A DNA stretch of 64,000 bases from the IMG/VR virus record IMGVR_UViG_3300028591_000214, positions 442 through 64,441 of that record; one strand, given 5' to 3'. Both the position numbers and the translations under genes were made by a program. This document shows, one piece after another, positions 7,098-64,000 of the stretch (the stretch's first letter is position 1; each line of letters opens with the position of its first letter). The notes under the pieces are model-generated. The model did not search any database and was not told where the DNA came from. It saw nothing but the letters and a program-made list of their open reading frames with translations. This DNA is from a virus (Duplodnaviria; Caudoviricetes).

Positions 7098-7928
7098 TTA
7101 ATGAAATCCATAGTCTATAAAATAAACCTTTTCATAATCATCATTTACAGAAACATAGAAACATAAAGTGAATTTTTTATGCTGCTTATCTGTAATTATA
7201 AAATAATCACAAGCTGTTCCTGAATACTCATTCCGTAATAAATCTATCTTTTTAATTATTTCTGGATTTTCTGAAAAAAGCTCATTTAAATTATCATAAA
7301 TTAAATATGGACTTTTAGTTTTTAAATAATTATATAATTCATAATAAATTAATTCTGCATTGGTTTTACCGATATCTTCTGCAGCCTGTATTGTATGATA
7401 ATCCCAATCATAAAATGCGTCTTCTGTATATTCACATATATTTCCCGTTAAACTTGTTAAAAATAAATGTGAACCATCTTCTCTTTGAAATCCTATTAAT
7501 TGCGCCACCAGATTAATAATATAACAGACTAAATAACTATCATATGCCCAATCATCAGAATCACCAAAATCTTCGTCTTCACTATAATTTTTAGCAGGTT
7601 CATATAAATGTCCTATACATCTATATCCATGAGACTGATTATCTTCTTTAAAATAAGTAGAACTATATATTTCTGGATCGGGATTATTTATAAATTCTTT
7701 ATATTCCGGATATTTTTTCGTAAAATAATCAAAGAATTTATGTTTTACAATATCATCAAATTCTAAAACTGTATTTTTCCAATCATCTAATGAACTATAA
7801 TTTCCAAATTGGTTGGTTATTTTATTTTTAACATCATTAATTTTTAATATACCATTATCTGAAGAAATATTTTCTTCAGTATTCCAATTTATAAGAACTT
7901 CATTCAATATATTAATAACCGAGTTCAT
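7098..7928 (-). CDS. Hypothetical protein with the shared LNE(I/V)LI(E/N)W leader, 276 aa
   Basis: Starts MNSVINILNEVLINWNTEENISSDNGILKINDV. Acidic, aromatic-rich body not recognised. Confidence 0.75.
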   Translation of the reverse strand: MNSVINILNEVLINWNTEENISSDNGILKINDVKNKITNQFGNYSSLDDWKNTVLEFDDIVKHKFFDYFTKKYPEYKEFINNPDPEIYSSTYFKEDNQSHGYRCIGHLYEPAKNYSEDEDFGDSDDWAYDSYLVCYIINLVAQLIGFQREDGSHLFLTSLTGNICEYTEDAFYDWDYHTIQAAEDIGKTNAELIYYELYNYLKTKSPYLIYDNLNELFSENPEIIKKIDLLRNEYSGTACDYFIITDKQHKKFTLCFYVSVNDDYEKVYFIDYGFH

Positions 7929-8259
7929 ATCCTAATGCTCCTAATACGAGTCTACTTGTCAATAAATTTCCGAGTGTACCTGATGGATTGATTCCCAATA
8001 CTTTACAAAGAGCTTTACCTAATGCTGGACCAAATGCAGCTCCTGCGGCACCGCCTAATAAACCTGATAAAATACCCTCATCAAGTGTATCATCTAATGA
8101 TTTACCTTCTATTTCAGCGACCTCTGCAGATTCGACTATATAATTATATAACTTTTTAGCTGCGTCTATTGATTCAAGACTTAAATTTGAATAATAGTCA
8201 CAGCCTTCGAACAATTCTTGTTCTGTTATATCAGATTTAGAAAAGTGTGTCTTCATCAT
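7912..8259 (-). CDS. Small glycine-zipper hydrophobic protein, putative virion component
   Basis: C-terminal LDEGILSGLLGGAAGAAFGPALGKALCKVLG...LVLGALG. Start more plausibly at ATG 8259 or 8256 than the track's 8274. Confidence 0.7.
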   Translation of the reverse strand: MMKTHFSKSDITEQELFEGCDYYSNLSLESIDAAKKLYNYIVESAEVAEIEGKSLDDTLDEGILSGLLGGAAGAAFGPALGKALCKVLGINPSGTLGNLLTSRLVLGALGYELGY

Positions 8260-8629
8260 CTTCATCCTCCACATATCCAGGATTAGGAGCTTCTAATGCT
8301 TTGTCTATACTTCTGTTCCAATAATCCCTTGTTCTTTTATATCCGTTTTTCAGCATATGGCCACCTTTTCTGATGACTCTACCAGCTCTATCTTTCATCC
8401 GATGGCATTTATCTATAAATTCTTGTGTCAATTCTTCCACATCCTCATCTGAAAGATATGAAGGGTTTTCAGCTGCATCTGCATCATCAAAAGCCTTATC
8501 GATACTTCTTCTTACATTTCTAGTTATATTAGAAAGTTTTCCTTCATAAAGCCTTTTAAATCTTCTGTATTGAGCAGGTGTCATAGCCTCTGCTAAAATA
8601 GGTAAACTTTCATTTTTTATCTTTTTCAT
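8237..8629 (-). CDS. Hypothetical charged protein, putative internal head protein, 130 aa
   Basis: Intact ORF in an operon. ILAE and LYE (I/L-x-E) motifs near the N-terminus. AATAAATA upstream. Confidence 0.65.
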   Translation of the reverse strand: MKKIKNESLPILAEAMTPAQYRRFKRLYEGKLSNITRNVRRSIDKAFDDADAAENPSYLSDEDVEELTQEFIDKCHRMKDRAGRVIRKGGHMLKNGYKRTRDYWNRSIDKALEAPNPGYVEDEDDEDTLF

Positions 8630-8656
8630 TTACTATAAAATAATTTATTTTATTTA

Positions 8657-9295
8657 TTAGCTTATAATGTTCAATTCTTTGCACTGATTTATAAAACCAC
8701 AAGACTTATTCATTAAGCTTATAGACGGAATAGATTTATATATTTGAATAGCCTCTCTATATTCTAATCCGTCTATAAAACAGATATCACATAAACTATG
8801 ACAATTATAAAATATATTAAACATATTCACAGGCGTCTCGGGCGGGTTTTGTTCCCTGATTAAATCCAAATCTAAAAATTTCTCAATCTTTACCAGATTT
8901 ACACAATTAAAAAATAATGCAGATAAATTTACTGGAATTCTTCGTTTGAAAATAATTTTTACGGTTTCATGCATCGGCTCATCTATATTATCTGTTATAA
9001 GCCCCATAAGAGATACTTGATCCTTTGATAATTTTGTATTTCCTATATAAATATCTACAATATCTAATATGTGTTTGCCGCAATTAACATATAATTTACT
9101 ATTTAAATTAAACAATGTTTTAGGATTAATCAGTTTAATCCCTTTCCAAATAAATCCTTGCTGATATTTGGCAATTATTGTACCATCAGATAATTGAGAT
9201 TTGACATCTATAGTATTAATAATTCCTTCTTCCTCCGGCATGGTATTATCACCCCATGCTATTAAAACCTTATTTAATATATTTGTATTAATCAT
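8657..9295 (-). CDS. Leader-family protein with degenerate BspA/DUF285-type repeats, 212 aa
   Basis: Leader MINTNILNKVLIAWGDN...EGIINTIDV. Repeats NLSALFFNCVNL and NMFNIFYNCHSL. Confidence 0.7.
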   Translation of the reverse strand: MINTNILNKVLIAWGDNTMPEEEGIINTIDVKSQLSDGTIIAKYQQGFIWKGIKLINPKTLFNLNSKLYVNCGKHILDIVDIYIGNTKLSKDQVSLMGLITDNIDEPMHETVKIIFKRRIPVNLSALFFNCVNLVKIEKFLDLDLIREQNPPETPVNMFNIFYNCHSLCDICFIDGLEYREAIQIYKSIPSISLMNKSCGFINQCKELNIIS

Positions 9296-10674
9296 ATTAC
9301 ATAAATATTTTCAATTGTAGATGTTACTGTATTGTCTAAAGAATCTTTTATAGTTATATTAATTACTTTAGGATTATAATCTTTTTCATATAAAAATGGT
9401 TTAAATTCAATTGGATTTTCCATATTAATCATATGATTATAAATGTTTAATGTAAATGGATGCTCTACTAATTTACCGTCATTATTGATATAACTGAATG
9501 CCCCTTCTATTTTTTCAGATGCATTAGATGTAATAAAATATCCTTTATTTGATATAACCACATTTTTTGGAGAAACTATATTCGTCTGGGCATCTGGTAT
9601 AGCCTTTATATCCGGCTGTTTATTAACTGAACAATTATCATTATTATATATAATGACATCTATACCTTCATAATCACTTGATACCGGTATTACCCAGTCA
9701 TAATATCCTGTATTATCTACTGTACCTATAAGATGTTCTTTTGATTCTTCTGGATTTTTAGAATCAATTTCAGTCCAATAAAATGTCACCTTTCCTATAT
9801 CACTTCCTGGAGAACTCCACTTCCATGTCAGCATTAAATCAATTCCTGCAGGAACGCTTTTACCGCCCAAAGAATCATCCAATGAAATATTTCCTTTTCC
9901 GTCATCTCCTTTATCTATACCTGAAATAGCCGCGGACATATTCTTAATATAATTAGATGCCTTTATTTCACTTGTTCTGTCGAATACAGGTTGATATGTC
10001 TCAACGGCTATATCCCAAGACTGTGTAATATATCTTTCATGATCTCCTCCCATTGTATATGTAGTTGATGCTTTATCTCCATTATAAGCATCTGGAAATC
10101 CTGCACGGCATCCTATTCGCAGACCTCTATAATATATATAGAATGTCTTATTTTTATAAAAGAATTCTCTTATTGCCTGTTCAATCTTAAATTCAGTCTC
10201 TAAAGTTTCAGATTTAATAGAAACTTTAAATGTATAAGTCAATGGTATAGAATATATAAATGATACAAAAGATTCTAATTCACCATCTACTTTTTTTTGA
10301 TAATTTGCCATCGCGAAACGATTAACTATATTACCTGAATCTATTGTAGATGAAACCATTTCTACTGAACCTCTTGGATAAATATCAAAATTACCGTCGA
10401 CTTTTTTTAATCCTATTTCTGTACATTGATCTGATCCGAAAAATGTATAGTTATCTTGGATAAATTTTTCAGAATTAGGATTTGAGCCTCCAAAATTATA
10501 AAAAAATGGAACCGTGACATCTTCAACCTTATCTTCCTCTTCATTCCAAATTTGGCTATATACTAAACGCCTGTTCAGAACTTTTAATATTCCGGCTATA
10601 ACAGCTCTGTTGAAGACATCATCATAATTCCTATTTTCATATAATTGCTTTTCTGACAAAACAGTTTGAGCCAT
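9292..10674 (-). CDS. Tail terminator/completion protein (T4 gp15-like) with C-terminal Ig-like extension, 460 aa
   Basis: VTVPFFY, PRGSVEM, IPLTYTFKVSI, IEQAIREFF and AVETYQPVF match the gp15-like pattern. Beta-rich tail contains LTWKW...NTGYYDWVIP. Confidence 0.65.
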   Translation of the reverse strand: MAQTVLSEKQLYENRNYDDVFNRAVIAGILKVLNRRLVYSQIWNEEEDKVEDVTVPFFYNFGGSNPNSEKFIQDNYTFFGSDQCTEIGLKKVDGNFDIYPRGSVEMVSSTIDSGNIVNRFAMANYQKKVDGELESFVSFIYSIPLTYTFKVSIKSETLETEFKIEQAIREFFYKNKTFYIYYRGLRIGCRAGFPDAYNGDKASTTYTMGGDHERYITQSWDIAVETYQPVFDRTSEIKASNYIKNMSAAISGIDKGDDGKGNISLDDSLGGKSVPAGIDLMLTWKWSSPGSDIGKVTFYWTEIDSKNPEESKEHLIGTVDNTGYYDWVIPVSSDYEGIDVIIYNNDNCSVNKQPDIKAIPDAQTNIVSPKNVVISNKGYFITSNASEKIEGAFSYINNDGKLVEHPFTLNIYNHMINMENPIEFKPFLYEKDYNPKVINITIKDSLDNTVTSTIENIYVI

Positions 10675-10716
10675 TAATTATTTAAATTAAAAAGTTTTAA
10701 TATTTATTTTTAACTT

Positions 10717-12129
10717 ATGTCTTTTATACGTAACAAAGAAAATGATTTTATTTTTAGTAATGAATATAATTTATTCTCTAATAAAAACTGGTATAATTTC
10801 TGTATAAGTCAATATAATATATATCCGGATATACTAAAAATTCTTCCCAATAGATCTATGAAAACTATATTTTTCAATTATGAAAAATGTAATGAATTAT
10901 TATGTTCAGTTGACTATTGGTGTAAACTGGGAGAAGATTTTAAAGAAGTGCCAAAAAATATAAAAATCACAGGAGACTTAACTAAATACTTTTCATTTGG
11001 TATAGATACACCTGATGATCTTGAATATGATGTAAGCGATATTGATGATAATGACGCATATGAATATGTATGGGGAGATATATCATTACCTCCTGACTGG
11101 GATTCATTAAAAGAATCCTTATCAGCAGAGCTGGATGTCAAGAATATCATTAAATGCATTGACATGGACGGTAATTCTGTTGATATAAAACATGATTCAT
11201 GCAATATATATCTTATTGACAAGAAAACTTTTTTCGAAATGCCTGAAAATATAGTAAAAGATATAAATGATGATTTTGTAATACTGCTTATGCATGATGC
11301 TGAATACTATCATCCATATCTGATTTATAATGTACAGACAGAAACTGAGAAAAAAATATTCAACCATATTTTAAGAATTTATAAACTATCTCTTGTCAAG
11401 AAAATAGTCGAATCTCCTGCAAGTATATCATTTATAGTTATGACTCCCGGCGGTGGATTTGATACTAAAGAAATAGAAATTACCGATGTAATCAAAAACG
11501 ATGAGAATCTTTTAATGCATGTAAATGATGATTTTGAAGAAGTCCACAAAAATACCATTGAATTCATTGAATCTAAAGAATCTGGTTTATTGATATATAG
11601 AGGATGTCCAGGCTCTGGAAAGACATCTTATATAAAATATCTCACGACATTATTCCAGTCTAAGAAATTTTTATTTGTATCACCAGATATAATGGGGAGA
11701 TTAAGCGATCCGAATTTCATCAGTTTCTTATCTGATAATAAAGAAGCTATAATTATTTTAGAAGATTGTGAACAATTATTAGTTTCAAGAGATAATACTT
11801 TAGATTCAATGTATATTAATTCTGGCTTGATGAATCTTCTTAATATGACTGACGGTATTCTTGGATCGGCTTTCAGGTTTAAATTTATATGCACATTCAA
11901 TTCAGACAATATAAGTAAAATAGATAATGCCCTCCTTCGAAAAGGAAGATGTAAGATTAATTATGAATTCAGAAAATTATCTATTGATAAAATAGATAAA
12001 CTTATAGAAGAAAATAAAATAAAAAATCCATGGAATGGAAAAATTAAAACTGAAATGACTGTCGCTGAATTATATAATTCTGAAGATAAAGATTATCAGA
12101 CTAAAAAACAAAAACGTATAGGTTTTTAA
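10717..12129 (+). CDS. AAA+ ATPase, 470 aa
   Basis: Walker A GCPGSGKT, Walker B IIILEDCE, LLNMTDG, CTFN, and SRH IDNALLRKGR. Confidence 0.9.
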   Translation: MSFIRNKENDFIFSNEYNLFSNKNWYNFCISQYNIYPDILKILPNRSMKTIFFNYEKCNELLCSVDYWCKLGEDFKEVPKNIKITGDLTKYFSFGIDTPDDLEYDVSDIDDNDAYEYVWGDISLPPDWDSLKESLSAELDVKNIIKCIDMDGNSVDIKHDSCNIYLIDKKTFFEMPENIVKDINDDFVILLMHDAEYYHPYLIYNVQTETEKKIFNHILRIYKLSLVKKIVESPASISFIVMTPGGGFDTKEIEITDVIKNDENLLMHVNDDFEEVHKNTIEFIESKESGLLIYRGCPGSGKTSYIKYLTTLFQSKKFLFVSPDIMGRLSDPNFISFLSDNKEAIIILEDCEQLLVSRDNTLDSMYINSGLMNLLNMTDGILGSAFRFKFICTFNSDNISKIDNALLRKGRCKINYEFRKLSIDKIDKLIEENKIKNPWNGKIKTEMTVAELYNSEDKDYQTKKQKRIGF

Positions 12130-12166
12130 AAAATAAATGACTGTAATATTACAGTCATTTATTTTT
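12129..12166. terminator. Bidirectional intrinsic terminator; perfect 38-bp palindrome
   Basis: aaaaataaatgactgtaat|attacagtcatttattttt lies between convergent genes. Confidence 0.8.
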
Positions 12167-12923
12167 AGCATTTTGGGATCACTAACCTATCAGGATCTAA
12201 ATTAGACGGGAGATTTTTAAAACATATAAAATCAAATATATTAAAATTTGTATTTTTAACTATATTAAATGTTCTTAACCTATAACCAATAATATTACCA
12301 TCTGAAGAAATACGCGGTTTTCCACCCTTTGGTTTCCATGTTTTATAATCGATTACGAGTTTTTTATTATTATCCAGTTTAGATAAAGATACACAATTAT
12401 CAAATATTTCATTTATGCTTCTTAATTTTGAAGTGTTCCATTTAGATAAATCCCCTATATCCTCTAAATCAGAACAAAAAACAAACATCCCAATCATAGA
12501 ATCAACTTTACTGGTATTCCATGTATTTAATCCTATAATTCTTTTTAGACCTTTACAATCATAAAAACAATAATTAAAATCTGTACAACCTGTTGTATCC
12601 CAATGAGATACATTAATAATTTCTGGATATTGCTTTACATCAAGATCTTCAAATAAAGAAGTTAATATATATTGTTTCCCTTCTATATTAGAAAGAGATA
12701 TAACTCTCAAATCAGCAACCTTAGATCCATTATTTATAGATTCATTTATCTTTTGTTCTATAATATCTGATAAACTTTTGAAATTTGTTGGATAATATAT
12801 ACACTTAATTTTAGATGTCGAAAGTTTATCCATCTCAGAAATTACCGAAGATGTCTGTATAATAGTATCATTTGAATCTAATATATTATCCCATTCAATC
12901 AGTATTTCATTTAAATATTTCAC
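12165..12923 (-). CDS. Leader-family protein with BspA-like/DUF285 repeats, 252 aa (GTG start)
   Basis: Leader [13 protein letters not shown]. Repeats SHWDTTGCTDFNYCFYDC, NTWNTSKVDSMIGMFVFC and SKWNTSKLRSINEIFDNC. Confidence 0.85.
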   Translation of the reverse strand: MKYLNEILIEWDNILDSNDTIIQTSSVISEMDKLSTSKIKCIYYPTNFKSLSDIIEQKINESINNGSKVADLRVISLSNIEGKQYILTSLFEDLDVKQYPEIINVSHWDTTGCTDFNYCFYDCKGLKRIIGLNTWNTSKVDSMIGMFVFCSDLEDIGDLSKWNTSKLRSINEIFDNCVSLSKLDNNKKLVIDYKTWKPKGGKPRISSDGNIIGYRLRTFNIVKNTNFNIFDFICFKNLPSNLDPDRLVIPKC

Positions 12924-13516
12924 TACTTTAGTTGAATTAATTTTGCACCGTAAAATGTAGGATTAGATAATGCACTCTCAAATTGTATTCTCTTAAATTT
13001 GTTTATATCTTCGACATATACCGTTTGAAGGTTTAAACACTTGTCAAAGGCAAATTCACCAATCTCAGTCACCGAGTTGGGGATGGTCACCGAGGTCAAG
13101 CCACTGCAATACCAGAAGGCACTTTTGCCAATCGAAGTCACCGAGTTGGGGATGGTCACCGAGGTTAAATTTTCACATTGATAAAATGTATACTTATCAA
13201 TTTCTTTAACCTTGTCAAAACCTTCTATATATACTCTATATTCACCTGGTTCATATTCATTTACTGTATATCCATCTTCATCTAATTGAACATGTTCACT
13301 GTTTATATAGACTTTATCTTTATATTCAGAATATATAATATTATCATGGTATATATCTACTGTACTATTAAATATTTTTATAAATCCAGATTCATCTATT
13401 TTATAGACAAGCTGATATTTCATTTGGTTTTCTACATCAGATGCTTTAATGATTCCTGAATCCTCTATATCAGGATTATTATCCCATTCGATTAATATTT
13501 CGTTTAGATATTTCAT
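12923..13516 (-). CDS. Leader-family BspA-type leucine-rich repeat (LRR_5) protein, 197 aa
   Basis: [13 protein letters not shown] leader and two [15 protein letters not shown] repeats. Confidence 0.9.
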
Positions 13517-14169
13517 TATAATAATTGAATAAATTTTATATATAACTCACATACCTCTAATATATCATTAAACCATTTTTTAATAATTGTTTCATTTCCT
13601 TTAGGATTATTTGTTTCCATTTTTACTATAAAAAAATAAAATTCATCATTTCCTATTTCAGCGGGATGATCTTCTATTTCTAAAGAATTACTATTAAAAT
13701 TTTTAATTAAAAATTTTTCAAACTTTTTATAATGTTTATAAAGATGAGATTCTGTATTTCTATCATCTATATAAATTGCAAATGAAAAATTTGGAGGAAA
13801 CTGCCATCCAGAATCTTTATCTAATAATCCTCCTTCTGTTGATGTTGCCCAATCATAAAATATATCTACAGGTGTATCAAAAAAATACTCCATTTCAAAA
13901 GGATTAATAGAATTATGATTATATTTTAAACCCTGCCACATATATCTGTGCAATACTTCGGGAGTTTTTAACCAAATTAAAAAATTATATTCCCTAGAAT
14001 CTACTCCTTTAACTTTAAGAATCTTATTTATAATATTATAATAATCTTCTAATTTAACTAAAAATTCAGTTAAATATAATCTTTTTTTAATATTAGAGCT
14101 CTTAATAATTCCAGTATCTTCAACAGTTGAATTATCCCATTCAATTAATATTTCATTCAAATACTTCAT
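13516..14169 (-). CDS. Leader-family hypothetical protein, 217 aa
   Basis: [27 protein letters not shown] leader. Payload not recognised. Translationally coupled to both neighbours. Confidence 0.8.
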
Positions 14170-15053
14170 TTATTTAATTCAATCAATTTTGCACCGTAAC
14201 ATGTCGGGTTTGAATATTCATTTCCAAATTTTATTTCATTAAATTTATTTATATCTTCTACATAGACTTTTTTAAGATTAGGGCAGCAATAGAAAGCACC
14301 GTCGTCAATAGACGTCACTGAGTTGGGGATAGTTACTGAGGTTAGGTAAGTACAACTACAGAAAGCATAGGGAGCAATCTTCCTCACTGAAGCAGGGATA
14401 ATAGTCTTCTTGCAACCGCAAATTAATGTCCTAGTAGTAGTCTCTATTATAGCGTTACAGTTCTTGCGAGAGTCATATTTAGGGTTTCCTTTCTCTACTA
14501 CAATAGAAGTCAATCTGGAGCAATTAGAGAAAACATACTTATCAATCGAAATCACCGAGTTAGGTATAACCATTGATATTAATCTGATACACCCGTTGAA
14601 AGCACAAAGACCAATCGAAGTTACTGAATCGGGGATAATAATACTAGTCAAATCTTTGCAACGACTAAAGGCATAATTGTCAATCTTCTTCACTGAATTG
14701 GGAATAATCACTGATGTCAAATCTTTGCAACGTGAGAATGCATACTCATATAGTTCTTTAAGCCTATCAAAATCTTCTATATATACACGGTATTCACCTG
14801 GTTCATATTCATTTACTGTAAATCCATCTTTATCTAATTGAACATGTTCTCCGTGTATATAGACTTTATCTTTAAATTCAGAATATATATAACTATAACC
14901 ATCAAATATTTTTATTTTTCCTGTTTTATCCAGTTTATAGATAAGATAATATTTCATTTCATTTGCTACAGCAGACGCTTTAATAAGTCCTGAATCTTCA
15001 ATATCAGAATTATCCCATTCGATTAAAATCTTATTTAATATATTAGCATTCAT
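14166..15053 (-). CDS. Leader-family BspA-type LRR protein, 295 aa
   Basis: Leader MNANILNKILIEWDN. About five IPNSV/IPDSV repeats plus the insert VEKGNPKYDSRKNCNAIIET. Confidence 0.9.
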   Translation of the reverse strand: MNANILNKILIEWDNSDIEDSGLIKASAVANEMKYYLIYKLDKTGKIKIFDGYSYIYSEFKDKVYIHGEHVQLDKDGFTVNEYEPGEYRVYIEDFDRLKELYEYAFSRCKDLTSVIIPNSVKKIDNYAFSRCKDLTSIIIPDSVTSIGLCAFNGCIRLISMVIPNSVISIDKYVFSNCSRLTSIVVEKGNPKYDSRKNCNAIIETTTRTLICGCKKTIIPASVRKIAPYAFCSCTYLTSVTIPNSVTSIDDGAFYCCPNLKKVYVEDINKFNEIKFGNEYSNPTCYGAKLIELNK

Positions 15054-15064
15054 ATTATATTTAT

Positions 15065-15098
15065 AAAAAAAATCTCATACTTAAATTAAGTATGAGAT
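15065..15098 (-). terminator. Intrinsic terminator after nrdJ
   Basis: atctcatacttaa-a-ttaagtatgagat inverted repeat with an A8 run on plus (U-tract on minus). Confidence 0.8.
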
Positions 15099-15122
15099 AA
15101 TTAATATTATATAAATTTAATC

Positions 15123-17765: not shown

Positions 17766-17788
17766 ATATTTTAATTTAAAAAATTATT

Positions 17789-19567: not shown

Positions 19568-19588
19568 ATTATTATTTAAACACCGAAA

Positions 19589-20245
19589 TTAAATTTTTTC
19601 TAACTCCACCAGCATTTTTTTCAAGGCCCAATAACTGTCTACTATATCATCAACACAAGCCGCGAAATTTTTCTTTTTAATAAATGTCTTTACATTCTTA
19701 TGGAATTTATGTTCATTTATAAAATCTTCCTTTATAAATGCATATATCATCGCATTTTTATCTTTACGTTTTTCTTTGGTCGCGCACCCAGCTAATGCTT
19801 TTATAGAAACCGGTGAAAATGTATATAAATTCTTTATATTAAAATTCTCTATTAACTTAACTAAAAGAACACCTTTATAAGTCGCGAGATTCAATGTAGC
19901 GTCTCCTATAGATCCAAAACTTAATCCCTCAGATGCGATATGTACGCCTATGTCTCTTGGTATATGATTATCATCCATATACCTGAATATAGTCTCTACT
20001 ATTAAATCCGCCAAAAATTTTGATCTTTCAGTATGTATTTTTGTAAGTTCTGAAGATGTATACATTTTAGAATTGATAGAATTCAGATTCCTGTTAACAG
20101 AATATACATGGTTATCTTTATACATTTCAAAATCTTTTTTATTCTGCTTTAATGGCCATATAAAGAAATCTATTATACCCTGATAATAAATTGTCATCGC
20201 AGGTTTATTGATTGAAAAATCAAACCCTATATATAAATCATTCAT
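19589..20245 (-). CDS. Phage RuvC-like Holliday junction resolvase, 218 aa
   Basis: IGFDFSINKPA, IASEGLSFGS, SPVSIKALAG...KNAMI and DDIVDSYW carry the RuvC acidic catalytic residues. Confidence 0.8.
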   Translation of the reverse strand: MNDLYIGFDFSINKPAMTIYYQGIIDFFIWPLKQNKKDFEMYKDNHVYSVNRNLNSINSKMYTSSELTKIHTERSKFLADLIVETIFRYMDDNHIPRDIGVHIASEGLSFGSIGDATLNLATYKGVLLVKLIENFNIKNLYTFSPVSIKALAGCATKEKRKDKNAMIYAFIKEDFINEHKFHKNVKTFIKKKNFAACVDDIVDSYWALKKMLVELEKI

Positions 20246-20446
20246 TTATAAACTTACCTAATATTTTTAAAAAAATTAAACAAAATTTAAACTTTTTTTA
20301 CATTTGTCGTTTATATAATTGTAAGCAATTAAGAAATTGAAATATATATTTTAAAGAAATATATAAAGAAAGAAAATTTCTTAAAAAATTTTGTTAATAT
20401 TTTAAAATATTTATATAATTTTAATATTTTAATATAATATTTTGTT

Positions 20447-20507
20447 TAATAAAAAATAGATAAGATTTTATACCCTATATGATATAAATCTTATCTATTT
20501 TTTATTA
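20447..20507. terminator. 22-bp inverted repeat hairpin, probable bidirectional terminator
   Basis: taataaaaaatagataagattt (20447-20468) pairs with aaatcttatctattttttatta (20486-20507). Confidence 0.75.
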
Positions 20508-20530
20508 TCTATACCCTATAAGGTATAATT

Positions 20531-22843: not shown

Positions 22844-22847
22844 ATGT

Positions 22848-23651: not shown

Positions 23652-23744
23652 TTTAAAATCATGTTTTTAGTATTTACTTATAAAATAAAGATTATCTATA
23701 AAAACAATTTAAACTTTTGGCTATTAATATATTTTAATATATAC

Positions 23745-25319: not shown

Positions 25320-25374
25320 AAATAAAAAAGAAAGTGTGCAAAGAAAAAAGAATTTTCAATATAAATTATATAAA

Positions 25375-25422
25375 AATTTACAAAAGTAAACTATTTCTAT
25401 TTTAAATTTACTTTTGTAAATT
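25375..25422. terminator. 16-bp inverted repeat hairpin downstream of uvsW
   Basis: aatttacaaaagtaaa (25375-25390) pairs with tttacttttgtaaatt (25407-25422). Confidence 0.6.
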
Positions 25423-25523
25423 ATGCGTATATTCTTTTTTCTTAATTTACATTAATTTAAACGACAGTTTTAAAAAAAGTTTAAAAATATCGAAAAAATT
25501 TTAAAATATATATTTTATAAATT

Positions 25524-26552: not shown

Positions 26553-26595
26553 TGATTTATACCGGAGGTCTGTTGGTAAGAAATGGCTTGAAAAA

Positions 26596-28015: not shown

Positions 28016-28016
28016 T

Positions 28017-44446: not shown

Positions 44447-44470
44447 AATAATTTGATACCCTTTTATGTA

Positions 44471-49297: not shown

Positions 49298-49316
49298 TCT
49301 GAATTATAATTTATAA

Positions 49317-56260: not shown

Positions 56261-56354
56261 TTATTTTATAAATATAAAATTTTAATATTTACTTTATAGT
56301 TATTACATAACTAATTGATAACAAAAAATGTTAAAAAACTTTAGATAATTTCCG

Positions 56355-56385
56355 ATATTCAAATATTTGATGTAATTTTGTAAAG
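56355..56385 (+). promoter_or_regulatory. Bacteroidota-type promoter upstream of the ligase operon
   Basis: ttcaaatatttgatg-TAATTTTG-ta (box 56373-56380), 23 nt before the ATG. Confidence 0.6.
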
Positions 56386-56403
56386 TAATAAAAATATAAA
56401 ATT

Positions 56404-58368
56404 ATGAACATGGATTTATACAATCAAGCAAAAGAGGCATACTATAACGGTAATCCGATTATGTCTGATCAAGAATTTGATGAACTTGAGAAATCATTAG
56501 GTCTTGAAAATAAAGGTTATATAGGAACAGTTAATAATGTTTCTTATACAGTTTCTCATCCTGTACTTATGGGAAGTCTTTCGAAAATTCAGATTAAGGA
56601 AGACAAGGATACTAAAACTATACAGTTTGATAAGTATTTAAGTGACCTTAAAAAATATATGGATAAGACAAAAGATTGTCCTGTATATGAGGTTACTCCT
56701 AAATTTGATGGAGCGTCGATTGAACTTATATTTGATCGTTTTGGTATGCTATTATCGGCTTCTACCAGAGGAGATGGTAAGTATGGTAAAGATATAAGTG
56801 TATGGTATCAAACTGATTATATTAAAAATAAATCAGTTATTAAAGAATTATGTAAAAAGCTTTTATCTGAGAATGAAAAATTAGTTGTCAGAGGTGAATG
56901 TCTTATTAAGATAAAAACATTTTTAGAAAAATATCAGTATGATTTCGCGAATCCCAGAGCATGGGTAGCTGGATGTATTGGCCAGAAATGGGAAAATACT
57001 CCTGAACAACAATCTTATAGGGAGGATTTAAATTTTGTTTTTTATACATTTATTAAAATAAATGGAAGAAATACTGCATACGAATTATCTTTTCAAAATG
57101 TTACTGATGGGCCTTATACAGATTCAGTAGGTATAGGAGAGTATCCGAAAGACATCTATTATATTAATAAGTCGCAGTTTGATCCAGATAGTTTTAAACA
57201 CTTATATCAAATGTTTGTAAACATTCGAGAAAATTCTGAATATGCCCTTGATGGATTTGTTATTAAACCTACTGTAAGTTATAGACTGAATGATTTTTCA
57301 AGAGAACGTCCGGAAGAATCAGTGGCCATTAAATTTGTTCCGGAAATTTTACAGTCTGTTATTACAGATATAATCTGGAAGCTCGGAAAGAATAAGGAAT
57401 GGTATCCAACCGCAGTATTGGAGCCTGTATATATGGATGGAAAAAAGATTATGAAGGCATCATTGCATAATTATAATTATATAATGTCACATAATGCTCA
57501 TATCGGCTCTGTGGTAAGAATTTCTTTGGCCGGTGATATAATTCCATTCGTATATGAAATAATCGGCACAGATGAGAAATATGAAACAACTGATAAGTAT
57601 AGACTTCCTGAGAACAGTAAGGTTGTTACAGAAGAATCTGGAATTGAACATTTAATGATAAATCAAATGGATAAGACGGAAGAAATTAAAATGCAGTTTA
57701 TACAATCTGCAGAAACACTGAACCTCAATAATATAGGTCCAAAAACTGCCGCAAAAATTTGGGATGCGTTATATAATGTGCATTATTGTTTATGGAATAT
57801 ATGTGAGTTATTTGATGATACTATTAAACAGCAATTAATTAAGGTTCTTGGAGAAAGTAAATCTACCGATAATATTATGGATACTTTAAATAAGGCTCCA
57901 TATGTATTGACATTAGAGCAAGTTATTAATTCTTGCAATTTCCCTTCTTGCGGTAATAAGGCGTCAAAGAGAATTGCCGAGATGATTTATCTTCAAATGA
58001 CTACAGACCATATTATTACAGCAGATGACTTTAAGGGATTAAACAGTGAGGCATGGTTATGGGTATTAAATGGACAGTCTGTTGAATGGGATGCATTAGA
58101 ATATCTTTATGAATGTTTTGAAGGTAAAGGTAAAAACATTTTTACACGAGTTGATTTAAATAATCAGGATGATAGTCAGATTAAAATTATTATGACTGGC
58201 GGGCCAGAAGGCATGACTAAAAAAGAGTGGCTTGCCAAGCATCCTGAATATACAGAAACTACAAAATGGAATGAATGTAAAATTCTGTTTTGTAATGATT
58301 TAAATAGTACTTCATCAAAAATGAAAAAAGCTCAAAAATTAGGTATTGAAATTAAATTATATAATTAA
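56404..58368 (+). CDS. ligA: NAD+-dependent DNA ligase, 654 aa
   Basis: Subdomain Ia AYYNGNPIMSDQEFD, HP...MGSLSK, adenylation motif KFDG, STRGDG, VRGE, NPRAWVAG, DGFVIK, ASLHN, AGDIIP, HhH motifs and a C-terminal BRCT-like region. Confidence 0.92.
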   Translation: MNMDLYNQAKEAYYNGNPIMSDQEFDELEKSLGLENKGYIGTVNNVSYTVSHPVLMGSLSKIQIKEDKDTKTIQFDKYLSDLKKYMDKTKDCPVYEVTPKFDGASIELIFDRFGMLLSASTRGDGKYGKDISVWYQTDYIKNKSVIKELCKKLLSENEKLVVRGECLIKIKTFLEKYQYDFANPRAWVAGCIGQKWENTPEQQSYREDLNFVFYTFIKINGRNTAYELSFQNVTDGPYTDSVGIGEYPKDIYYINKSQFDPDSFKHLYQMFVNIRENSEYALDGFVIKPTVSYRLNDFSRERPEESVAIKFVPEILQSVITDIIWKLGKNKEWYPTAVLEPVYMDGKKIMKASLHNYNYIMSHNAHIGSVVRISLAGDIIPFVYEIIGTDEKYETTDKYRLPENSKVVTEESGIEHLMINQMDKTEEIKMQFIQSAETLNLNNIGPKTAAKIWDALYNVHYCLWNICELFDDTIKQQLIKVLGESKSTDNIMDTLNKAPYVLTLEQVINSCNFPSCGNKASKRIAEMIYLQMTTDHIITADDFKGLNSEAWLWVLNGQSVEWDALEYLYECFEGKGKNIFTRVDLNNQDDSQIKIIMTGGPEGMTKKEWLAKHPEYTETTKWNECKILFCNDLNSTSSKMKKAQKLGIEIKLYN

Positions 58369-58371
58369 ACT

Positions 58372-58563
58372 ATGAGTGAACGAACAAGAGATTTAGAAAA
58401 GCAGCGAAAGAAAGTTATGAATGCGACAGATTTACAAATTAAAAATATGATTATTGCATTGGCGGAGACAATACCTGGTAGGTGCCATACAAAAGAGGAT
58501 TATAAAAACAATATCTGCGAGTTAATTGACAGATTATTTCCTCCGACAATAAACAATAAATAA
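58372..58563 (+). CDS. Hypothetical protein, 63 aa
   Basis: Starts 3 nt after the ligA stop. Confidence 0.55.
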   Translation: MSERTRDLEKQRKKVMNATDLQIKNMIIALAETIPGRCHTKEDYKNNICELIDRLFPPTINNK

Positions 58564-58588
58564 TTTAACTAAAATTTATAAATTAAGT

Positions 58589-58864
58589 ATGAGTAATAAT
58601 AAAATTCTTGATTTTTGGGCACCTTGGTGCGGTCCATGTAAACAGATGAAACCATCTATTGAAAAACTTGCAGAAGAATATGCAGATGTTGTTACTATAG
58701 AGACTGTTAACATAGAAGAAGATACAGAAGATGTATCTATTAAATATAATGTAAGAAATATACCTACAGTTATTTTTATTAAAGACGGAAAAGAAGTAGA
58801 GAGAATTATAGGTACTAAAAGTTATGATAGTATTAAGGCATTAATCGAAAAAACTTTTAAGTAA
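58589..58864 (+). CDS. trxA: Thioredoxin, 91 aa
   Basis: DFWAPWCGPCK and VRNIPT. Confidence 0.95.
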   Translation: MSNNKILDFWAPWCGPCKQMKPSIEKLAEEYADVVTIETVNIEEDTEDVSIKYNVRNIPTVIFIKDGKEVERIIGTKSYDSIKALIEKTFK

Positions 58865-59070
58865 TGAAGAAGTTTAAAAATATTATAGTGTCAAGTTTTG
58901 GATATATTATTTTATTTTTCTGGAAACTTTTGCTTTGTATATTCTTTATTATATTAAGTGCTTTTTTATTTTTCTTCTGGATAATATCTTGGATGATTGG
59001 AAATCATCCGGGCCCATTAAGAAAAATATATAGGTTAGATGATTTAAAAAAGAAAAAAGAATTAATTTAA
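58864..59070 (+). CDS. Small membrane protein, 68 aa
   Basis: About 38-residue hydrophobic stretch. TAATG coupling to trxA. Confidence 0.65.
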   Translation: MKKFKNIIVSSFGYIILFFWKLLLCIFFIILSAFLFFFWIISWMIGNHPGPLRKIYRLDDLKKKKELI

Positions 59071-59086
59071 TATTAAATTTTTATAT

Positions 59087-59845
59087 ATGTCAAAAGATTA
59101 TAATCAAGTTAAGAGTGAACTTTTTGAAAGTTTAGAAAAAGTTTTTGCACCTGTATTTGAAGAAATTTTTGGTTTTTTCAATGCGGATGAAAACTGTGAA
59201 TGTAAAAATGAATGCTGTGAAAAATGTGAATGTAAAGCTGAAAATAAGGCTGCATATACATGCACAGAAGAATGTGATAAGTCATGCTGCAGGGATCTTA
59301 ATCAAGAACATAAAGAACCTGCTTGTGAATGTAAGCAGGATTCTACATGTGAATGTAAATGTGAAGCACAAAAGAGCTCTATTGCAGAGCAGCTTTATAC
59401 AAAGCATTATAATACATGGAATATTCTGAACAAGGATAATACTACACCTGTTCCTGATAAAGACAGAACAGATACTCTTACTCCTGTAGTAGATAAGATT
59501 ATTATTCTTTTTAAGAATATTTTGAATGGAACAGCTCAACCAGATCCGGGTAATGCAGGATTTGACAATCTTTATTATGAGCTTTCAGCAGAACATCATT
59601 TTGATTATTACATTACATTCGGCGGTTCATTCGATGGTAAAGATACTCCTTATGTAAAAGTCGGTATTGATTTACTTGATCTTCATGATGATGATTTTAT
59701 TTTCTTCGGAAGAGATTGTGCCAATATCGATAATTATTTAGAGGATTTCGCGAATGAGCTTTCAGATCGTCTGGGATTTGCCAGTTATGATGTAGTAATG
59801 GATAATAATCAGATTATTCTGAAGATGTTTTATTGGGATGTATAA
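59087..59845 (+). CDS. Hypothetical protein with a Cys-rich metallothionein-like segment, 252 aa
   Basis: 15 Cys between NCECK and CECKCEAQ. Confidence 0.75.
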   Translation: MSKDYNQVKSELFESLEKVFAPVFEEIFGFFNADENCECKNECCEKCECKAENKAAYTCTEECDKSCCRDLNQEHKEPACECKQDSTCECKCEAQKSSIAEQLYTKHYNTWNILNKDNTTPVPDKDRTDTLTPVVDKIIILFKNILNGTAQPDPGNAGFDNLYYELSAEHHFDYYITFGGSFDGKDTPYVKVGIDLLDLHDDDFIFFGRDCANIDNYLEDFANELSDRLGFASYDVVMDNNQIILKMFYWDV

Positions 59846-59870
59846 TAAATTCACATTCATGGTATAAACA

Positions 59871-59912
59871 AAAAGGAATATAAGTTTTAAAATATAAATT
59901 TATATTCCTTTT
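59871..59912 (+). terminator. Intrinsic terminator
   Basis: aaaaggaatataa pairs with ttatattcctttt. Confidence 0.65.
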
Positions 59913-59923
59913 ATTTTAAAGAT

Positions 59924-60220
59924 ATGAGAGAGATTAAATTAAGCAACAGATATAAAGCCAGTAACAGATTAATTGAATTTAGGGAAAATGAGTTTTATTT
60001 GGAGTTCAGTAATTCTGAAGATGCTAATTTCTGTAGGGTCGGATGGGATAATGAACATTCTTATAAAGACAAGGAATATATATTCATAGATCCGTCTGGA
60101 GGTCCATTTATCACAATAGGAAGTAAATTTGAAGAGGTTCCAGATATGAAAGTCATAAGGATTTACGAAGAATCGTTAAAAGAAGGGGAATTACCTAAGT
60201 TTATTATTAAATTTGGTTAA
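59924..60220 (+). CDS. Hypothetical protein, 98 aa
   Basis: Intact ORF. Contains FIDPSGGPFITIG. Confidence 0.65.
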   Translation: MREIKLSNRYKASNRLIEFRENEFYLEFSNSEDANFCRVGWDNEHSYKDKEYIFIDPSGGPFITIGSKFEEVPDMKVIRIYEESLKEGELPKFIIKFG

Positions 60221-60231
60221 AATATTTTTTT

Positions 60232-60262
60232 ATTTTAAATATTTGATATATCTTTGTAATGT
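60232..60262 (+). promoter_or_regulatory. Bacteroidota-type promoter
   Basis: tttaaatatttgata-TATCTTTG-ta (box 60249-60256). Confidence 0.65.
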
Positions 60263-60314
60263 CAATTGAAACTGACAGATAATTTATTTTATTAACTTTT
60301 TTAAAATTTTAAAA

Positions 60315-60650
60315 ATGAAGAATGAAATTTGGAAAGACCTCAATGTAGATTTGTATTACAGAGGCATTAAGAATTGTTATCAAGTATCTAACATGGGACG
60401 TGTACGCAACAAAATCACTGGTCATATGATGACTACTCGTCGCGGACAATCTCCTAAGGCATCTGCTCGTGTAACTCTTGAAGGTGCAGTAGATCGTACA
60501 CTTACATTTAATGTATCAACTCTCGTGTGGAAAACTTTCGCTACTAACTGTCGTGATATTGAGAATGTTAACATCTCTTTTAAGGACGGTAATCCTATGA
60601 ACTGTAAGTTGAGTAATCTTTACATTGCTCCTACCCGTTTTAATCGCTAA
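60315..60650 (+). CDS. NUMOD4 + degenerate HNH domain protein (probably nuclease-dead), 111 aa
   Basis: IWKD...YQVSNMGRVRN (NUMOD4). VSTLVWKTF...ISFKDGNPMNCKLSNL where active HNH proteins have VHRLVA.AF...NH.DGN..NN...NL. Confidence 0.75.
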   Translation: MKNEIWKDLNVDLYYRGIKNCYQVSNMGRVRNKITGHMMTTRRGQSPKASARVTLEGAVDRTLTFNVSTLVWKTFATNCRDIENVNISFKDGNPMNCKLSNLYIAPTRFNR

Positions 60651-60667
60651 CAATATAAGATTTTTTG

Positions 60668-60699
60668 GATGGGTTTATTTTTAATAAACCCATCTTTTT
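60668..60699 (+). terminator. Intrinsic terminator
   Basis: gatgggtttatt pairs with aataaacccatc, followed by T5. Confidence 0.8.
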
Positions 60700-60726
60700 A
60701 CTTATATAAATATTGAAATAACAAAA

Positions 60727-61110
60727 ATGGCTAGACGAAAAAAATTAATAATACCAGACGAGTATTGTGAATGGAATGAAAAAATAATTAAACAATGTTC
60801 TAATATTGATATTAAATATGTAGAAACTGTAATTACAGAACTAGAATCGAAATATAGGAATAATGAGTATGATTTTGTAATAGATTCTGTGAAGAACCTT
60901 TATAAGTATTTGACTAATGAAGAAAGTAAGAAAATAGTTAAGAGAGTTTTAATTAAGAATAGTTTATGGTTTTTACAAAGGATGAAGTATTGTAAAAGTT
61001 TATGTGATGATTATTATAGTTTAGACGAAGAAGAACAAAAGACCAGAGAAATAATATTTAAAAAATTATTATGTGATCATATTAAAATTTTAGTTGATAA
61101 TGAAATCTAA
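60727..61110 (+). CDS. Hypothetical protein, 127 aa
   Basis: TATAAATA at 60705-60712 upstream and a terminator downstream. Confidence 0.65.
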   Translation: MARRKKLIIPDEYCEWNEKIIKQCSNIDIKYVETVITELESKYRNNEYDFVIDSVKNLYKYLTNEESKKIVKRVLIKNSLWFLQRMKYCKSLCDDYYSLDEEEQKTREIIFKKLLCDHIKILVDNEI

Positions 61111-61135
61111 TTAGGAATTAAAATGAATCTGGTAG

Positions 61136-61178
61136 CAGAATGGTTTTATTTGAGAAAATAAAACCATTCTGTTTTTTT
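61136..61178 (+). terminator. Intrinsic terminator
   Basis: cagaatggttttatt pairs with aataaaaccattctg, followed by T7. Confidence 0.85.
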
Positions 61179-61213
61179 ACCGTTTATTATATAAAATATA
61201 ACGAGCAGTTAAA

Positions 61214-62407
61214 ATGATAACTCAGAAGAAATTATTATTAGGAATAGACTGGACAAATATAATGTTCAGATCTTTATTTATGTCATCTACATTCGGAAAT
61301 AATTCATATAAAGATGTAGATGAATTACAATCATTTATATGTAAATTTGGCCAAGATTTGGCATATCTATTTAAGATTTTCTGTCCGGATAAGGTTTTAA
61401 TAATGACAGATGGCAGAAATGCATGGAGAAAAGACTTATTACCAAAAGATGATGCCGGTGCCGGATATAAGGCAAACAGAGAAAAAGATGATAGATGGGA
61501 TTGGGATAAGATTTATGAATATGCAGATAAATTAAAAGATATAATGAAATCAAAAGGGTTTGATTTCTGTGAAGTTTCTAGAGGGGAGGCAGATGATTTA
61601 TTATGCATGTCTAAGGAATTAGTATTTGAAAAACATAATGACTGGAATCTTATTTTAGTATCATCTGATGCAGATATTCGTCAACTTGCTGATTTTAATA
61701 AGAATAATAAGCAATACTGTATTGTGTATAATCCTGTTTCATTAAAAGGCGGAATCAGGAGATTATTTGTAACCAAAGATTTTTTTGAATGGTGGAGCTC
61801 AGAAGAAAATGAAGTAAATGATATATTTTTTAGTAATATCAATAATGATAAAAATAGATTAAAAACTATCATAGCCAACGCATCCAATAAAGTCAAGCTT
61901 GAAATTATTAATCCTAATGATATTGTATTAAGTAAAATGTTCTGTGGAGATAATAGTGATAATATTCCAAGTTTTTATACATGGTATAATAATAAAGGTA
62001 AACTCTCCAGAGTAACAGAATCTAAATTCAAGAAACTTCAGGAGGCATTATCTATAAATTCTGTAGAGGACTTATTAATAAAAGAGAATCTTATCAAGGA
62101 TTCATTAGAGCCGATTATTAAAAAAGATATGAATGATATAGATATTCACAAAAAATTGGAAACTCAAAAACTTCTTGTAGAATTAAAATCGGACAATTTT
62201 CCTGATAATATAAAAGGATATAAGGCAGATATTGAATTGATGATATCAGATGATATTAAGATTATACCTAAGCATTTTAATATTCATGAACTGTTTAAAG
62301 ATACGGAATTTGAAGAATTCTTACAAAGGAAAGATAATTCAGAACAGAAAGTATTTAAAGATTTAGATAAGTATATAACTAAAAATAATTTAACACAGTT
62401 ATGGTAA
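61214..62407 (+). CDS. 5'-3' exonuclease / T4 RNase H (FEN1-like), 397 aa
   Basis: LGIDWTN, TDGRNAWRK, YKANR, EADDLL, SSDADIRQL and GDNSDNIP. Confidence 0.88.
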   Translation: MITQKKLLLGIDWTNIMFRSLFMSSTFGNNSYKDVDELQSFICKFGQDLAYLFKIFCPDKVLIMTDGRNAWRKDLLPKDDAGAGYKANREKDDRWDWDKIYEYADKLKDIMKSKGFDFCEVSRGEADDLLCMSKELVFEKHNDWNLILVSSDADIRQLADFNKNNKQYCIVYNPVSLKGGIRRLFVTKDFFEWWSSEENEVNDIFFSNINNDKNRLKTIIANASNKVKLEIINPNDIVLSKMFCGDNSDNIPSFYTWYNNKGKLSRVTESKFKKLQEALSINSVEDLLIKENLIKDSLEPIIKKDMNDIDIHKKLETQKLLVELKSDNFPDNIKGYKADIELMISDDIKIIPKHFNIHELFKDTEFEEFLQRKDNSEQKVFKDLDKYITKNNLTQLW

Positions 62408-62697
62408 TTACAGGAAAGAATTTTCTTAAAGTAGGAACAACATATTTTGATTTAACTACATTATGTTCTTTTAAGTTTTATCCTGATTATAAAGGATATA
62501 TTAAGATGCATATGTATTTTTTATCTCGTGAAACTCCTATTAAGGTAAATATAAAAAATAAAAATGAATTATGTGAATTTATTTATAGACTAGATGCTTA
62601 TTTAGATGAAGAAATGAGAGGCTCTTTACAGTCACTTATTGAGCAAATAGACAAGATGAAACAAGATGATAATAAATTACATAGAAATAAAAAATAA
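62401..62697 (+). CDS. Hypothetical protein, 98 aa
   Basis: Overlaps the exonuclease stop by 7 nt. Confidence 0.6.
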   Translation: MVITGKNFLKVGTTYFDLTTLCSFKFYPDYKGYIKMHMYFLSRETPIKVNIKNKNELCEFIYRLDAYLDEEMRGSLQSLIEQIDKMKQDDNKLHRNKK

Positions 62698-62761
62698 AAT
62701 AATATAATCACATTTTTATTTTTCAGATAAATAAATTAAATTAGTTAAAAAATAATATAAT

Positions 62762-63382
62762 ATGGCATCAAGAGAAAATAATGGTTGGAGTAAAGGTACT
62801 TTAGGTCTGCCACATTACAGATCTTCACGTATTTCAACTTCTATGGCAGAGCCAATATATCTTAATCTTTTTACTGTTCAGTTGACAGCGCCTGCAGCGC
62901 TTGCTGATCAATGGGATCAAGAATCTATGAATTTAATGCTCGAAGGAGTACAAGATATTCAAGGTTTGAATTCAGATACATTCCCAGGTGGAGCATTTAC
63001 TCAAAAATATAAACATGCAGATCGTTCATTTATTAATGCTGTTCCTTCTCAAACTTATATGGATATTACAATCAATTTTGCATTGAATATGCGACCAGAT
63101 TCTGATACTCCTGATAATTTTACATACAAGTTCTTAAGACAGTGGAATGATCTTGTTTATGACCCAATGACAGGTCGCACAGGTTTGAAAAAGAATTATG
63201 TAGCTCCTAATATGACTATTACAATGCAGGATCGTGAAGGTGTTCCTTTCTGGCAATGGATATTATATAATGTATTTCCTACCAAAGCTCTTGAAGGTCC
63301 AGCATTAAATTATACATCAAACGAACCAATGAAAGCGTCATTAGGTTTAAGATGTGATTATTGGGATGAGTGTATGCTTTAA
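62762..63382 (+). CDS. Tail tube protein (T4 gp19-like), 206 aa
   Basis: [33 protein letters not shown] and LYNVFPT...LNYTS...LRCDYW. Confidence 0.8.
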
Positions 63383-63408
63383 TAAAGATTAAGATTATAA
63401 AAAATAAG

Positions 63409-63445
63409 ATAAGTTGCTTCTATTATAGGAGTAACTTATTTTTTT
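63409..63445 (+). terminator. Intrinsic terminator after the tail tube gene
   Basis: ataagttgcttcta pairs with taggagtaacttat (two G-U pairs), followed by a T run. Confidence 0.75.
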
Positions 63446-63456
63446 ATAAATATAAT

Positions 63457-64000
63457 ATGAATAACAATATATTAAATAGAATACTGATTGAGTGGAAAGA
63501 TTCTGATATAGAGGATTCTGGATTAATTAGAGTGTCTGATGTAGAACACTGGATAAAATATCACTTTGTCTATAAAATAGATGAGCCGGGGCAAATAAAA
63601 ATATTTAATAATAATAGTGTATATGATGATTATATACAAGAATTTAAAGATAAAGTCTATATACACGGAGAACATGTTCAATTAGATAAAGATGGATATA
63701 CAGTAAATGAATATGAACCAGGTGAATATAGAGTATATATAGAAGGTTTTGATAAGGTTAAAGAAATTATTAGTTGTGCTTTTGAATTTTGCAGGAGCCT
63801 TTCTTTAGTGACCATCCCCAACTCAGTGACTTTGATTGACAAATGGGCCTTCAATAGTTGCACTGGCTTGACCTCGGTGACCATCCCCAACTCGGTGACG
63901 ACGATTGGCTACGCAGCCTTCTCTTATTGCGAAGGCCTGACTTCAGTGACCATCCCCAGCTCGGTGGTTGAGATTGACGTAGGTGTCTTTGGTGGTTGCA
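63457..64000 (+). CDS. Leader-family BspA-type LRR protein, truncated by the window edge
   Basis: Not in the ORF track. [29 protein letters not shown]...[28 protein letters not shown] followed by three or more VTIPNSVT.I...AF repeats. Confidence 0.9.

Follow-up and report, generated by a model that had tools for sequence, protein, structure and literature searches.

Seven genes in a 64,000-nucleotide stretch of viral DNA (positions 442 to 64,441 of IMG/VR record IMGVR_UViG_3300028591_000214; hereafter the window, which is nearly all of a 64,441-bp contig) begin with a common leader, a 35–40-residue N-terminal module that reads LNx(I/V)L(I/L)xW, followed by an acidic loop and then G(I/L)(I/L)K.SD(I/V). 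The remainder of each protein, its payload, differs. These genes are part of a phage-only multigene family that is defined by the portable leader and that is itself undescribed, and the leader-plus-payload unit occurs as a separate gene, as a translationally coupled gene or as one bead of a polyprotein. Under the reading that we favor, with a probability of roughly 0.45, the leader would be a plug that docks into one common socket, which probably lies on the exterior of the virion.

One leader on unrelated payloads

The seven open reading frames (ORFs) had been picked out in a first-pass annotation made from the letters alone, and all of them exist (Table 1; members are named here by their lower coordinate). 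Six are on the minus strand and the seventh, 63457, is on the plus strand, where it is cut by the window end. A hidden Markov model (HMM) of the seven leaders, searched against a six-frame translation of the whole contig, returned exactly these seven matches with E values from 1e-24 to 8e-15; the next match had an E value of 0.03, and a repeat search gave the same result. The residues L, N, L, I, and W are invariant in all seven. Three leaders contain an identical 13-residue peptide that is encoded by differing synonymous codons, as the annotation had observed, and the DNA identity among the leaders of the window's paralogs is only 35–74%, which argues that selection acts on the peptide.

Across 71 distinct leader copies, no substitution occurs at the core L, N, L, and W in any copy that covers the position, and D is found in 64 and G in 52. 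The two candidate Glu positions are variable: the residue after LN is E in 42 copies, K in 15, R in nine, and N in two, and the residue before W is E in 29, N in 13, Q in 10, S in eight, and D in eight. The 8657 member has Glu at neither position, in agreement with the annotation. No Pfam or PHROG family covers the leader, a comparison of its profile with all PDB chains gave a best E value of 0.67 to an unrelated protein, and a word-based homolog search with the leader region returned the query alone. A description of the leader helix as amphipathic was rejected since its hydrophobic moment is not above that of shuffled sequences, and we use the term hydrophobic instead. A subgroup of leaders (loci L007, L010, L013, L016, and L018) has IINI(T/S)G or LINVDP in place of the usual GIIKxSDV strand, which suggests a second flavor of the tag.

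The payload labels of the annotation hold for the three BspA leucine-rich repeat (LRR) proteins, with LRR_5 scores of 77.9 (12923), 136.5 (14166), and 77.5 bits (63457) against a Pfam gathering cut-off of 27.7, and for the DUF285 payload of 12165 (55.6 bits; cut-off 25). The 8657 protein, also labeled DUF285, has no match, and Pfam leaves three payloads rather than two without a family (7098, 8657, and 13516). For the payloads of 7098 and 13516, and for the 460-residue protein encoded beside 8657, neither a PDB sequence search nor the ESM Atlas yielded a usable identification. The LRR trio (12923, 14166, and 63457) have approximately 100 residues in common, consisting of the leader and a pre-LRR beta domain, and also share their C-terminal cap; they are thus closer paralogs of each other. 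Outside the trio, pairwise similarity stops at around residue 31–37. A larger fold shared by all seven proteins, which the annotation had named as the finding that would undo its proposal, therefore fails for the non-LRR members and is confined to the 100 residues common to the trio.

An exhaustive search of 1.84 billion representative proteins with the seven-leader profile retrieved 54 clusters at E ≤ 1e-3, and further occurrences are on one other IMG/VR contig and at 12 JGI metagenome loci with 50 more HMM matches. The leader pattern is in none of 185,579 bacterial or archaeal species genomes. By BLAST, 72 payload modules fall into 27 unrelated groups. Among 50 representative proteins, Pfam recognizes LRR_5 in 16, DUF285 in 12, FGE-sulfatase in four, and Lactamase_B in one, with no match for about 20; approximately half of the payloads are BspA LRR, DUF285 or FGE-sulfatase/lectin-like binders. 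The carrier proteins are acidic, with a median isoelectric point (pI) of 5.3 (range 4.2–8.7, n = 50). At 16 loci around leader genes, 62 of the 136 ORFs of at least 180 residues carry the leader, a biased proportion given that the loci were picked by their leader genes.

Coupled genes, polyproteins and predicted structure

Four of the seven members form an operon that runs 14166, 13516, 12923, and 12165 from first to last gene, with successive stop and start codons overlapping as ATGA (where 14166 ends), TAATG, and TAGTG. In relatives, two to five leader-plus-payload units are contained in one uninterrupted ORF under translation table 11. Polyprotein P0002 has 1429 residues and five leaders, and P0003, with 1520 residues, is collinear with the window's four-gene operon; polyprotein junctions read AELIELKK directly followed by DLNEALLQW. 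The internal leaders are conserved as well as the N-terminal ones, over approximately 35 residues, and a free N-terminus is therefore not required. The window has no polyprotein of its own.

Variants of the operon were found by placing the contigs of four sequencing runs on it, and the variant coordinates derive from runs X1 and X2 (sheep gut). In one contig, a 5-nt deletion (window positions 14163–14169) joins 14166 to 13516 in a single reading frame. A 655-nt deletion from leader to leader (13518–14172, with the joint between 13517 and 14173) removes exactly the 13516 cassette, and contigs without this cassette were found in two studies and two sheep-gut runs. Fused and cassette-deleted variants are present side by side in the same samples. 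Fusion, fission, and cassette loss at the leader indicate that the evolutionary unit is the leader plus its payload, and that linking or separating such units is tolerated. Some contigs of an RNA library (run X4) match parts of the operon identically; they were considered as a sign of its transcription and set aside as falling short of proof.

An AlphaFold2 (AF2) model of the 12923 protein has a mean predicted local distance difference test score (pLDDT) of 84, with values below 50 for residues 1–18, of 45–67 for residues 20–30 and above 80 for the remainder. A helix is predicted at residues 2–12 and is not placed relative to the rest of the protein; from about residue 20 a strand and a helix join the first domain of the payload, with a pLDDT that rises from 45–67 to 82. 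In a model of a two-module piece of P0002 (predicted template modeling score 0.43), the leaders at residues 1–37, 366–389, and 651–695 all score below 50, and the piece is predicted to resemble beads on a string. As modeled, the leader helix is not packed on its own payload, on the preceding cap or on the neighboring module, which is consistent with a need for a partner in trans. A Foldseek search with the LRR model against viral structures returned generic LRR proteins only.

Two of the polyproteins, P0003 and P0005, have at residues 1–337 (L002:10001-11020) a domain with a HELTH (HExxH) motif, weak matches to peptidases M76 and M91 (E ~0.07) and a lead to LPD23 (0.89). This domain, which is absent from the window, is possibly a chain-processing zincin or, alternatively, a surface enzyme; the other beads of these polyproteins are binders, not enzymes.

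Gene neighborhood and source of the contig

With the exception of the 14166–12165 operon, leader genes sit among late morphogenesis and virion structural genes. Member 7098 is directly upstream of the baseplate wedge gene and member 63457 directly downstream of the tail tube gene. In relatives, the neighbors include genes for the capsid protein, a gp5-like hub, a head-closure protein, and gp13, as well as the portal, the large terminase, a prohead protease-scaffold fusion, and endolysins; a helicase and a phosphoesterase are also among them. The prohead protease of the Lak type carries a long, charged, scaffold-like region as its fusion partner (L010:8121-9917; L002:14788-16704; L003). The tripeptide LNE is found near the N-terminus of this protease (RLNES, TLNEA) and approximately 46 residues into the capsid protein (NLNEA, KLNED), and is in both a candidate L-x-E-type maturation site.

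Table 1. Leader genes, their leaders and other features of the window.
Feature	Position (nt)	Strand	Evidence and remarks
Member 7098, 276 aa, payload without known family	7098–7928	-	Leader HMM E 8e-15; no Pfam or PHROG match; ortholog P0022
Leader of 7098 (~residues 5–45)	7794–7928	-	
Member 8657, 212 aa, most divergent leader (ILNKVLIAWG)	8657–9295	-	Leader HMM E 5e-20; ortholog P0018
Leader of 8657	9161–9295	-	
Member 12165, 252 aa, GTG start, DUF285 payload	12165–12923	-	Pfam DUF285, 5.6e-15
Leader of 12165	12804–12923	-	
Member 12923, 197 aa: leader, small beta domain, BspA LRR, C-terminal cap	12923–13516	-	LRR_5, 8e-22; AF2 model
Leader of 12923	13397–13516	-	
Member 13516, 217 aa, payload without known family	13516–14169	-	Leader HMM
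Leader of 13516	14050–14169	-	
Member 14166, 295 aa, leader and BspA LRR	14166–15053	-	LRR_5, 6e-40
Leader of 14166	14925–15053	-	
Member 63457, BspA LRR type, truncated by window end	63457–64000	+	LRR_5, 1e-21
Leader of 63457	63457–63585	+	
Upstream cassette of the operon: hairpin, T-run, TATAAATATAAT directly before ATG	15054–15100	-	
Same hairpin/T-run/TATAAATATAAT cassette before the 63457 gene	63410–63456	+	
Baseplate wedge (T4 gp6-like)	5159–7078	-	phrog_219, 6e-18; in one gene string with 7098 and 8657
460-aa protein, translationally coupled to 8657	9292–10674	-	Lak-A1 homolog (42%)
AAA-family ATPase with unknown 250-residue N-terminal domain	10717–12129	+	PF00004, 2e-8; on the opposite strand amid the leader-gene cluster
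Tail tube	62762–63382	+	phrog_45 and phrog_4542; just upstream of 63457

The upstream cassette listed in Table 1, which stand-alone members often have, precedes 14 of 61 distinct leader genes (L001–L018), including 14166 and 63457. Its hairpin is terminator-like, and the cassette includes TATAAATA, the T4 late-promoter consensus; only 4 nt lie between this and the start codon, and the mRNA would be almost leaderless. Across the window TATAAATA is not enriched, with 30 occurrences against 33 expected.

The start of 8657 overlaps the end of the upstream gene, that of the 460-residue protein, by 4 nt. A rule by which this gene is always followed by a 215-residue leader gene was dropped: the corresponding pair in L005 is unrelated, and the Lak-A1 homolog of the 460-residue protein has no leader gene after it. 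The AAA ATPase was likewise rejected as a conserved neighbor, no homolog being found near the leader arrays of L001–L003. A 120-residue protein with a glycine-zipper-like hydrophobic C-terminal half (7912–8274, minus strand) overlaps the start of 7098 by 17 nt.

The contig is a fragment of a Lak-related megaphage, and the carriers of the leader are Lak-related megaphages of ruminant guts. Its completeness is 11% (CheckV) and its GC content 26–31%; a carrier contig behind L001 extends to 320,940 bp. The capsid protein of L002, a relative, shares 60% identity with its counterpart in the Prevotella Lak megaphages, and the window's 460-residue protein is 42% identical to a Lak-A1 protein encoded near the Lak-A1 capsid gene. 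The runs containing the operon are sheep, cattle, and goat gut metagenomes. The leader was not found in Lak-A1 by the same search that recovers seven in the window's contig, and there was no match in cultured phages by megablast of 20 kb or by tblastn of the 13516 protein. All 50 genes checked are open under table 11, with TAA as stop codon in 45, TGA in four, and TAG in one, where TGA comes directly after; Lak-A1 genes, in contrast, have many in-frame TAG codons, and the window's clade seems not to be recoded. Adjoining the polyprotein in L001 is a 5.9-kb gene-free stretch (L001:14290-20180) with an array of 16 tRNA genes, no suppressor among them.

A proposed docking plug and its alternatives

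The 54 clusters, the 27 payload groups and the helix left unpacked by AF2 agree well with the central idea of the first-pass annotation, one portable address or docking module on interchangeable payloads, and we regard it as very likely that the leader is an address or docking tag in this general sense. Its more specific wording, a virion-docking tag, stays the best reading of the data, at slightly less than even odds. The free hydrophobic helix would be the plug for one common socket on the capsid, neck, tail or baseplate, and through it the phage would mount a changeable set of binding modules. Several leaders might jointly occupy a single symmetric socket, an arrangement that would explain why fusing and splitting of units is tolerated. 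A socket on the outside is favored by the location of the genes in late morphogenesis operons, by the surface-type binders that make up about half of the payloads, and by the architecture, which, with a short N-terminal dock, a small beta domain, and a distal binder, mirrors that of the crAss001 head fibers and the Klebsiella phage docking peptides. The full conservation of internal leaders points the same way, since it is expected if each unit docks and not if one tag carries the whole chain.

Several points weigh against an external docking plug. The socket partner is putative. The four-gene operon is located between ribonucleotide reductase and AAA ATPase genes, not among structural genes. 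Small domains of unknown type, not necessarily adhesins, make up about half of the payload groups, and one has a metallo-beta-lactamase fold. The confidence values for the leader in the AF2 models rest on shallow alignments of 12 and 4 rows. A T4 gp9/gp10-like branching domain (PF07880) was not found in the fragment, a result that is uninformative at 11% completeness.

The annotation had drawn on T4 for a different role, that of a capsid-loading tag. In the full form of this reading the proteins would enter the prohead core, be trimmed after LNE or LIE by a gp21-type protease (which would also cut the polyproteins) and be injected with the DNA as effectors. T4 provides the precedent of one tag on many proteins, its diverse internal proteins sharing only the 10-residue tag MKTYQEFIAE (PMC8442874; PMC3012670). 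A T4-type prohead protease is encoded by Lak-A1 (PF03420, 57.6 bits) and a homolog of the protease-scaffold fusion by L010, where a leader gene comes directly after it; a gp21-type prohead protease was not found in the 64-kb fragment. The LNE near the N-termini of the capsid protein and protease of Lak-like phages fits an LxE cutting rule, the polyprotein gene of L002 lies just upstream of the capsid gene, and the HExxH domain that heads P0003 and P0005 recalls polyvalent proteins, which are processed by zincins and injected (PMC5512222). It is also a weak hint that nearly all internal leaders keep the Glu, although those that do so stem from one subclade and one internal leader has Lys.

The details of the leader nevertheless make capsid loading unlikely, and the proposed gp21 cleavage after (I/L)xE is not supported by them. 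A Glu at the P1 position is not conserved (42 of 71 leaders at the first site, 29 of 71 at the second, and neither in 8657), and most of the conserved residues come after the proposed cut, opposite to the arrangement in the T4 tag. A single tag would be enough for each polyprotein, yet the internal copies are fully conserved. The cargo is acidic, and about half of it consists of surface-type binders. Finally, the N-terminus of the capsid protein scores −0.8 bits with the leader HMM, a value that approximately 40% of shuffled sequences reach.

We consider it quite improbable that the leader drives homo- or hetero-oligomerization, or attaches the proteins to some hub outside the virion (a host factor or a phage ATPase, for instance), so that paralogs would assemble into multi-headed intracellular complexes independently of the particle. 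Such a role would follow Rosetta-stone logic, in that separate, coupled genes of the window have fused counterparts in relatives and in variant contigs; it would suit a helix that is short and very hydrophobic, with its Asn and Trp invariant, and the many payloads that are unknown small domains, and an AAA ATPase gene lies inside the cluster. However, the AAA gene does not adjoin the leader arrays in the relatives checked, the leaders persist between modules that are already covalently joined, for which a mere linker role would be redundant, AF2 did not pack the three leaders of one chain against each other, and the gene context is late and structural. That the leader is the first element of the payload fold, or is conserved through nucleic acid constraints (translation initiation or recombination joints), would accommodate the strand and helix that join the payload domain in the LRR model, the cassette deletion that runs from leader to leader, and the upstream cassette that travels with some members, but deserves very little credence, given that the same 35 residues precede 27 unrelated payload groups, that residues 1–18 are unpacked in the model, that identical peptides are written in different codons at 35–74% DNA identity, and that the internal copies have no start codon to serve.

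If the leader is an external docking plug, a broader scheme can be drawn, which is doubtful as a whole: a viral plug-and-socket display, in which one type of socket would take dozens of leader-tagged modules, separate or in polyproteins, and give each virion a mosaic, rapidly evolvable coat of binders. New specificities would be gained by placing the ~40-residue leader, often with its own promoter cassette, before a captured domain. Lak-type megaphages are the largest gut phages and none is cultured, and one portable tag on dozens of proteins in each genome offers a handle on how their particles are built and bind. Identification of the socket would assign a large fraction of their 'dark' genes to a single structure, and would reveal whether cassette exchange is a route by which giant phages vary their surface or the cargo that they inject. 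The tag would also be a natural display or loading peptide for engineering.

Comparison with known systems

The closest architectural parallel is provided by the head fibers of crAss001, in which residues 1–38 of gp21 (a trimer) and 1–58 of gp29 (a dimer) plug into hexon pockets (PMC10172136). Both systems combine a short N-terminal segment with a small distal binding domain in phages of Bacteroidota gut hosts, and different crAss001 fibers use related sockets. The two differ in that there is no sequence relationship, that crAss001 has two fiber genes as compared to dozens of paralogs, more than 25 payload types, and polyproteins here, and that the binding site of the leader is putative. In Klebsiella, K1-5/SP6, and G7C-type phages, secondary receptor-binding proteins dock via conserved N-terminal peptides of 7 to ~40 residues (PMC6872550), and such peptides have been validated (PMC13352976). 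There, too, a group-specific N-terminal peptide mounts exchangeable binders whose genes are interspersed among structural genes, and the leader likewise is a short conserved N-terminal segment with variable C-terminal domains among paralogs of one phage. The Klebsiella-type proteins, however, are trimeric depolymerase tail spikes on a T4 gp10-like socket, whereas the leader is joined to LRR, DUF285, lectin-like, and unknown payloads and also occurs internally. No sequence homology to a described docking segment was detected in PDB, Pfam, or PHROG.

The capsid targeting sequence of T4 (IPI–III and Alt) resembles the leader as one N-terminal peptide on unrelated, fast-evolving proteins, in a lineage with a gp21-type protease. 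The internal proteins of T4 are basic and their tag has 10 residues and always ends in a cleaved Glu; the leader, by contrast, has 35–40 residues, a variable Glu, acidic cargo, and internal copies. Homology to MKTYQEFIAE was rejected, as only M, K, and two E align while the invariant L, N, L, and W are unmatched, and is treated as chance. A resemblance of the leader to the N-terminus of the capsid protein (ILIEWDN...SGIIKASDV and LLEAWGP...TGIKDV, respectively) was rejected as well, with an HMM score of −0.8 bits and with 37–75% of 2,000 shuffles scoring at least as high.

Cohesin-dockerin pairs of cellulosomes, which are common in rumen microbes, use a small docking module to mount varied modules on a common scaffold. 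Dockerins have 70 residues, contain a duplication, bind calcium and are usually C-terminal; the analogy is one of function with no homology claimed. The polyproteins of the relatives, and only these, can be compared with polyvalent proteins, in which one chain joins disparate activities, often together with a zincin (Iyer et al., 2017). The principle of a shared tag on exchangeable proteins is already known from T4, crAss001, and Klebsiella phages, to which the leader family adds a new and unusually expanded case, with the polymorphism between fused and split units as its particular twist.

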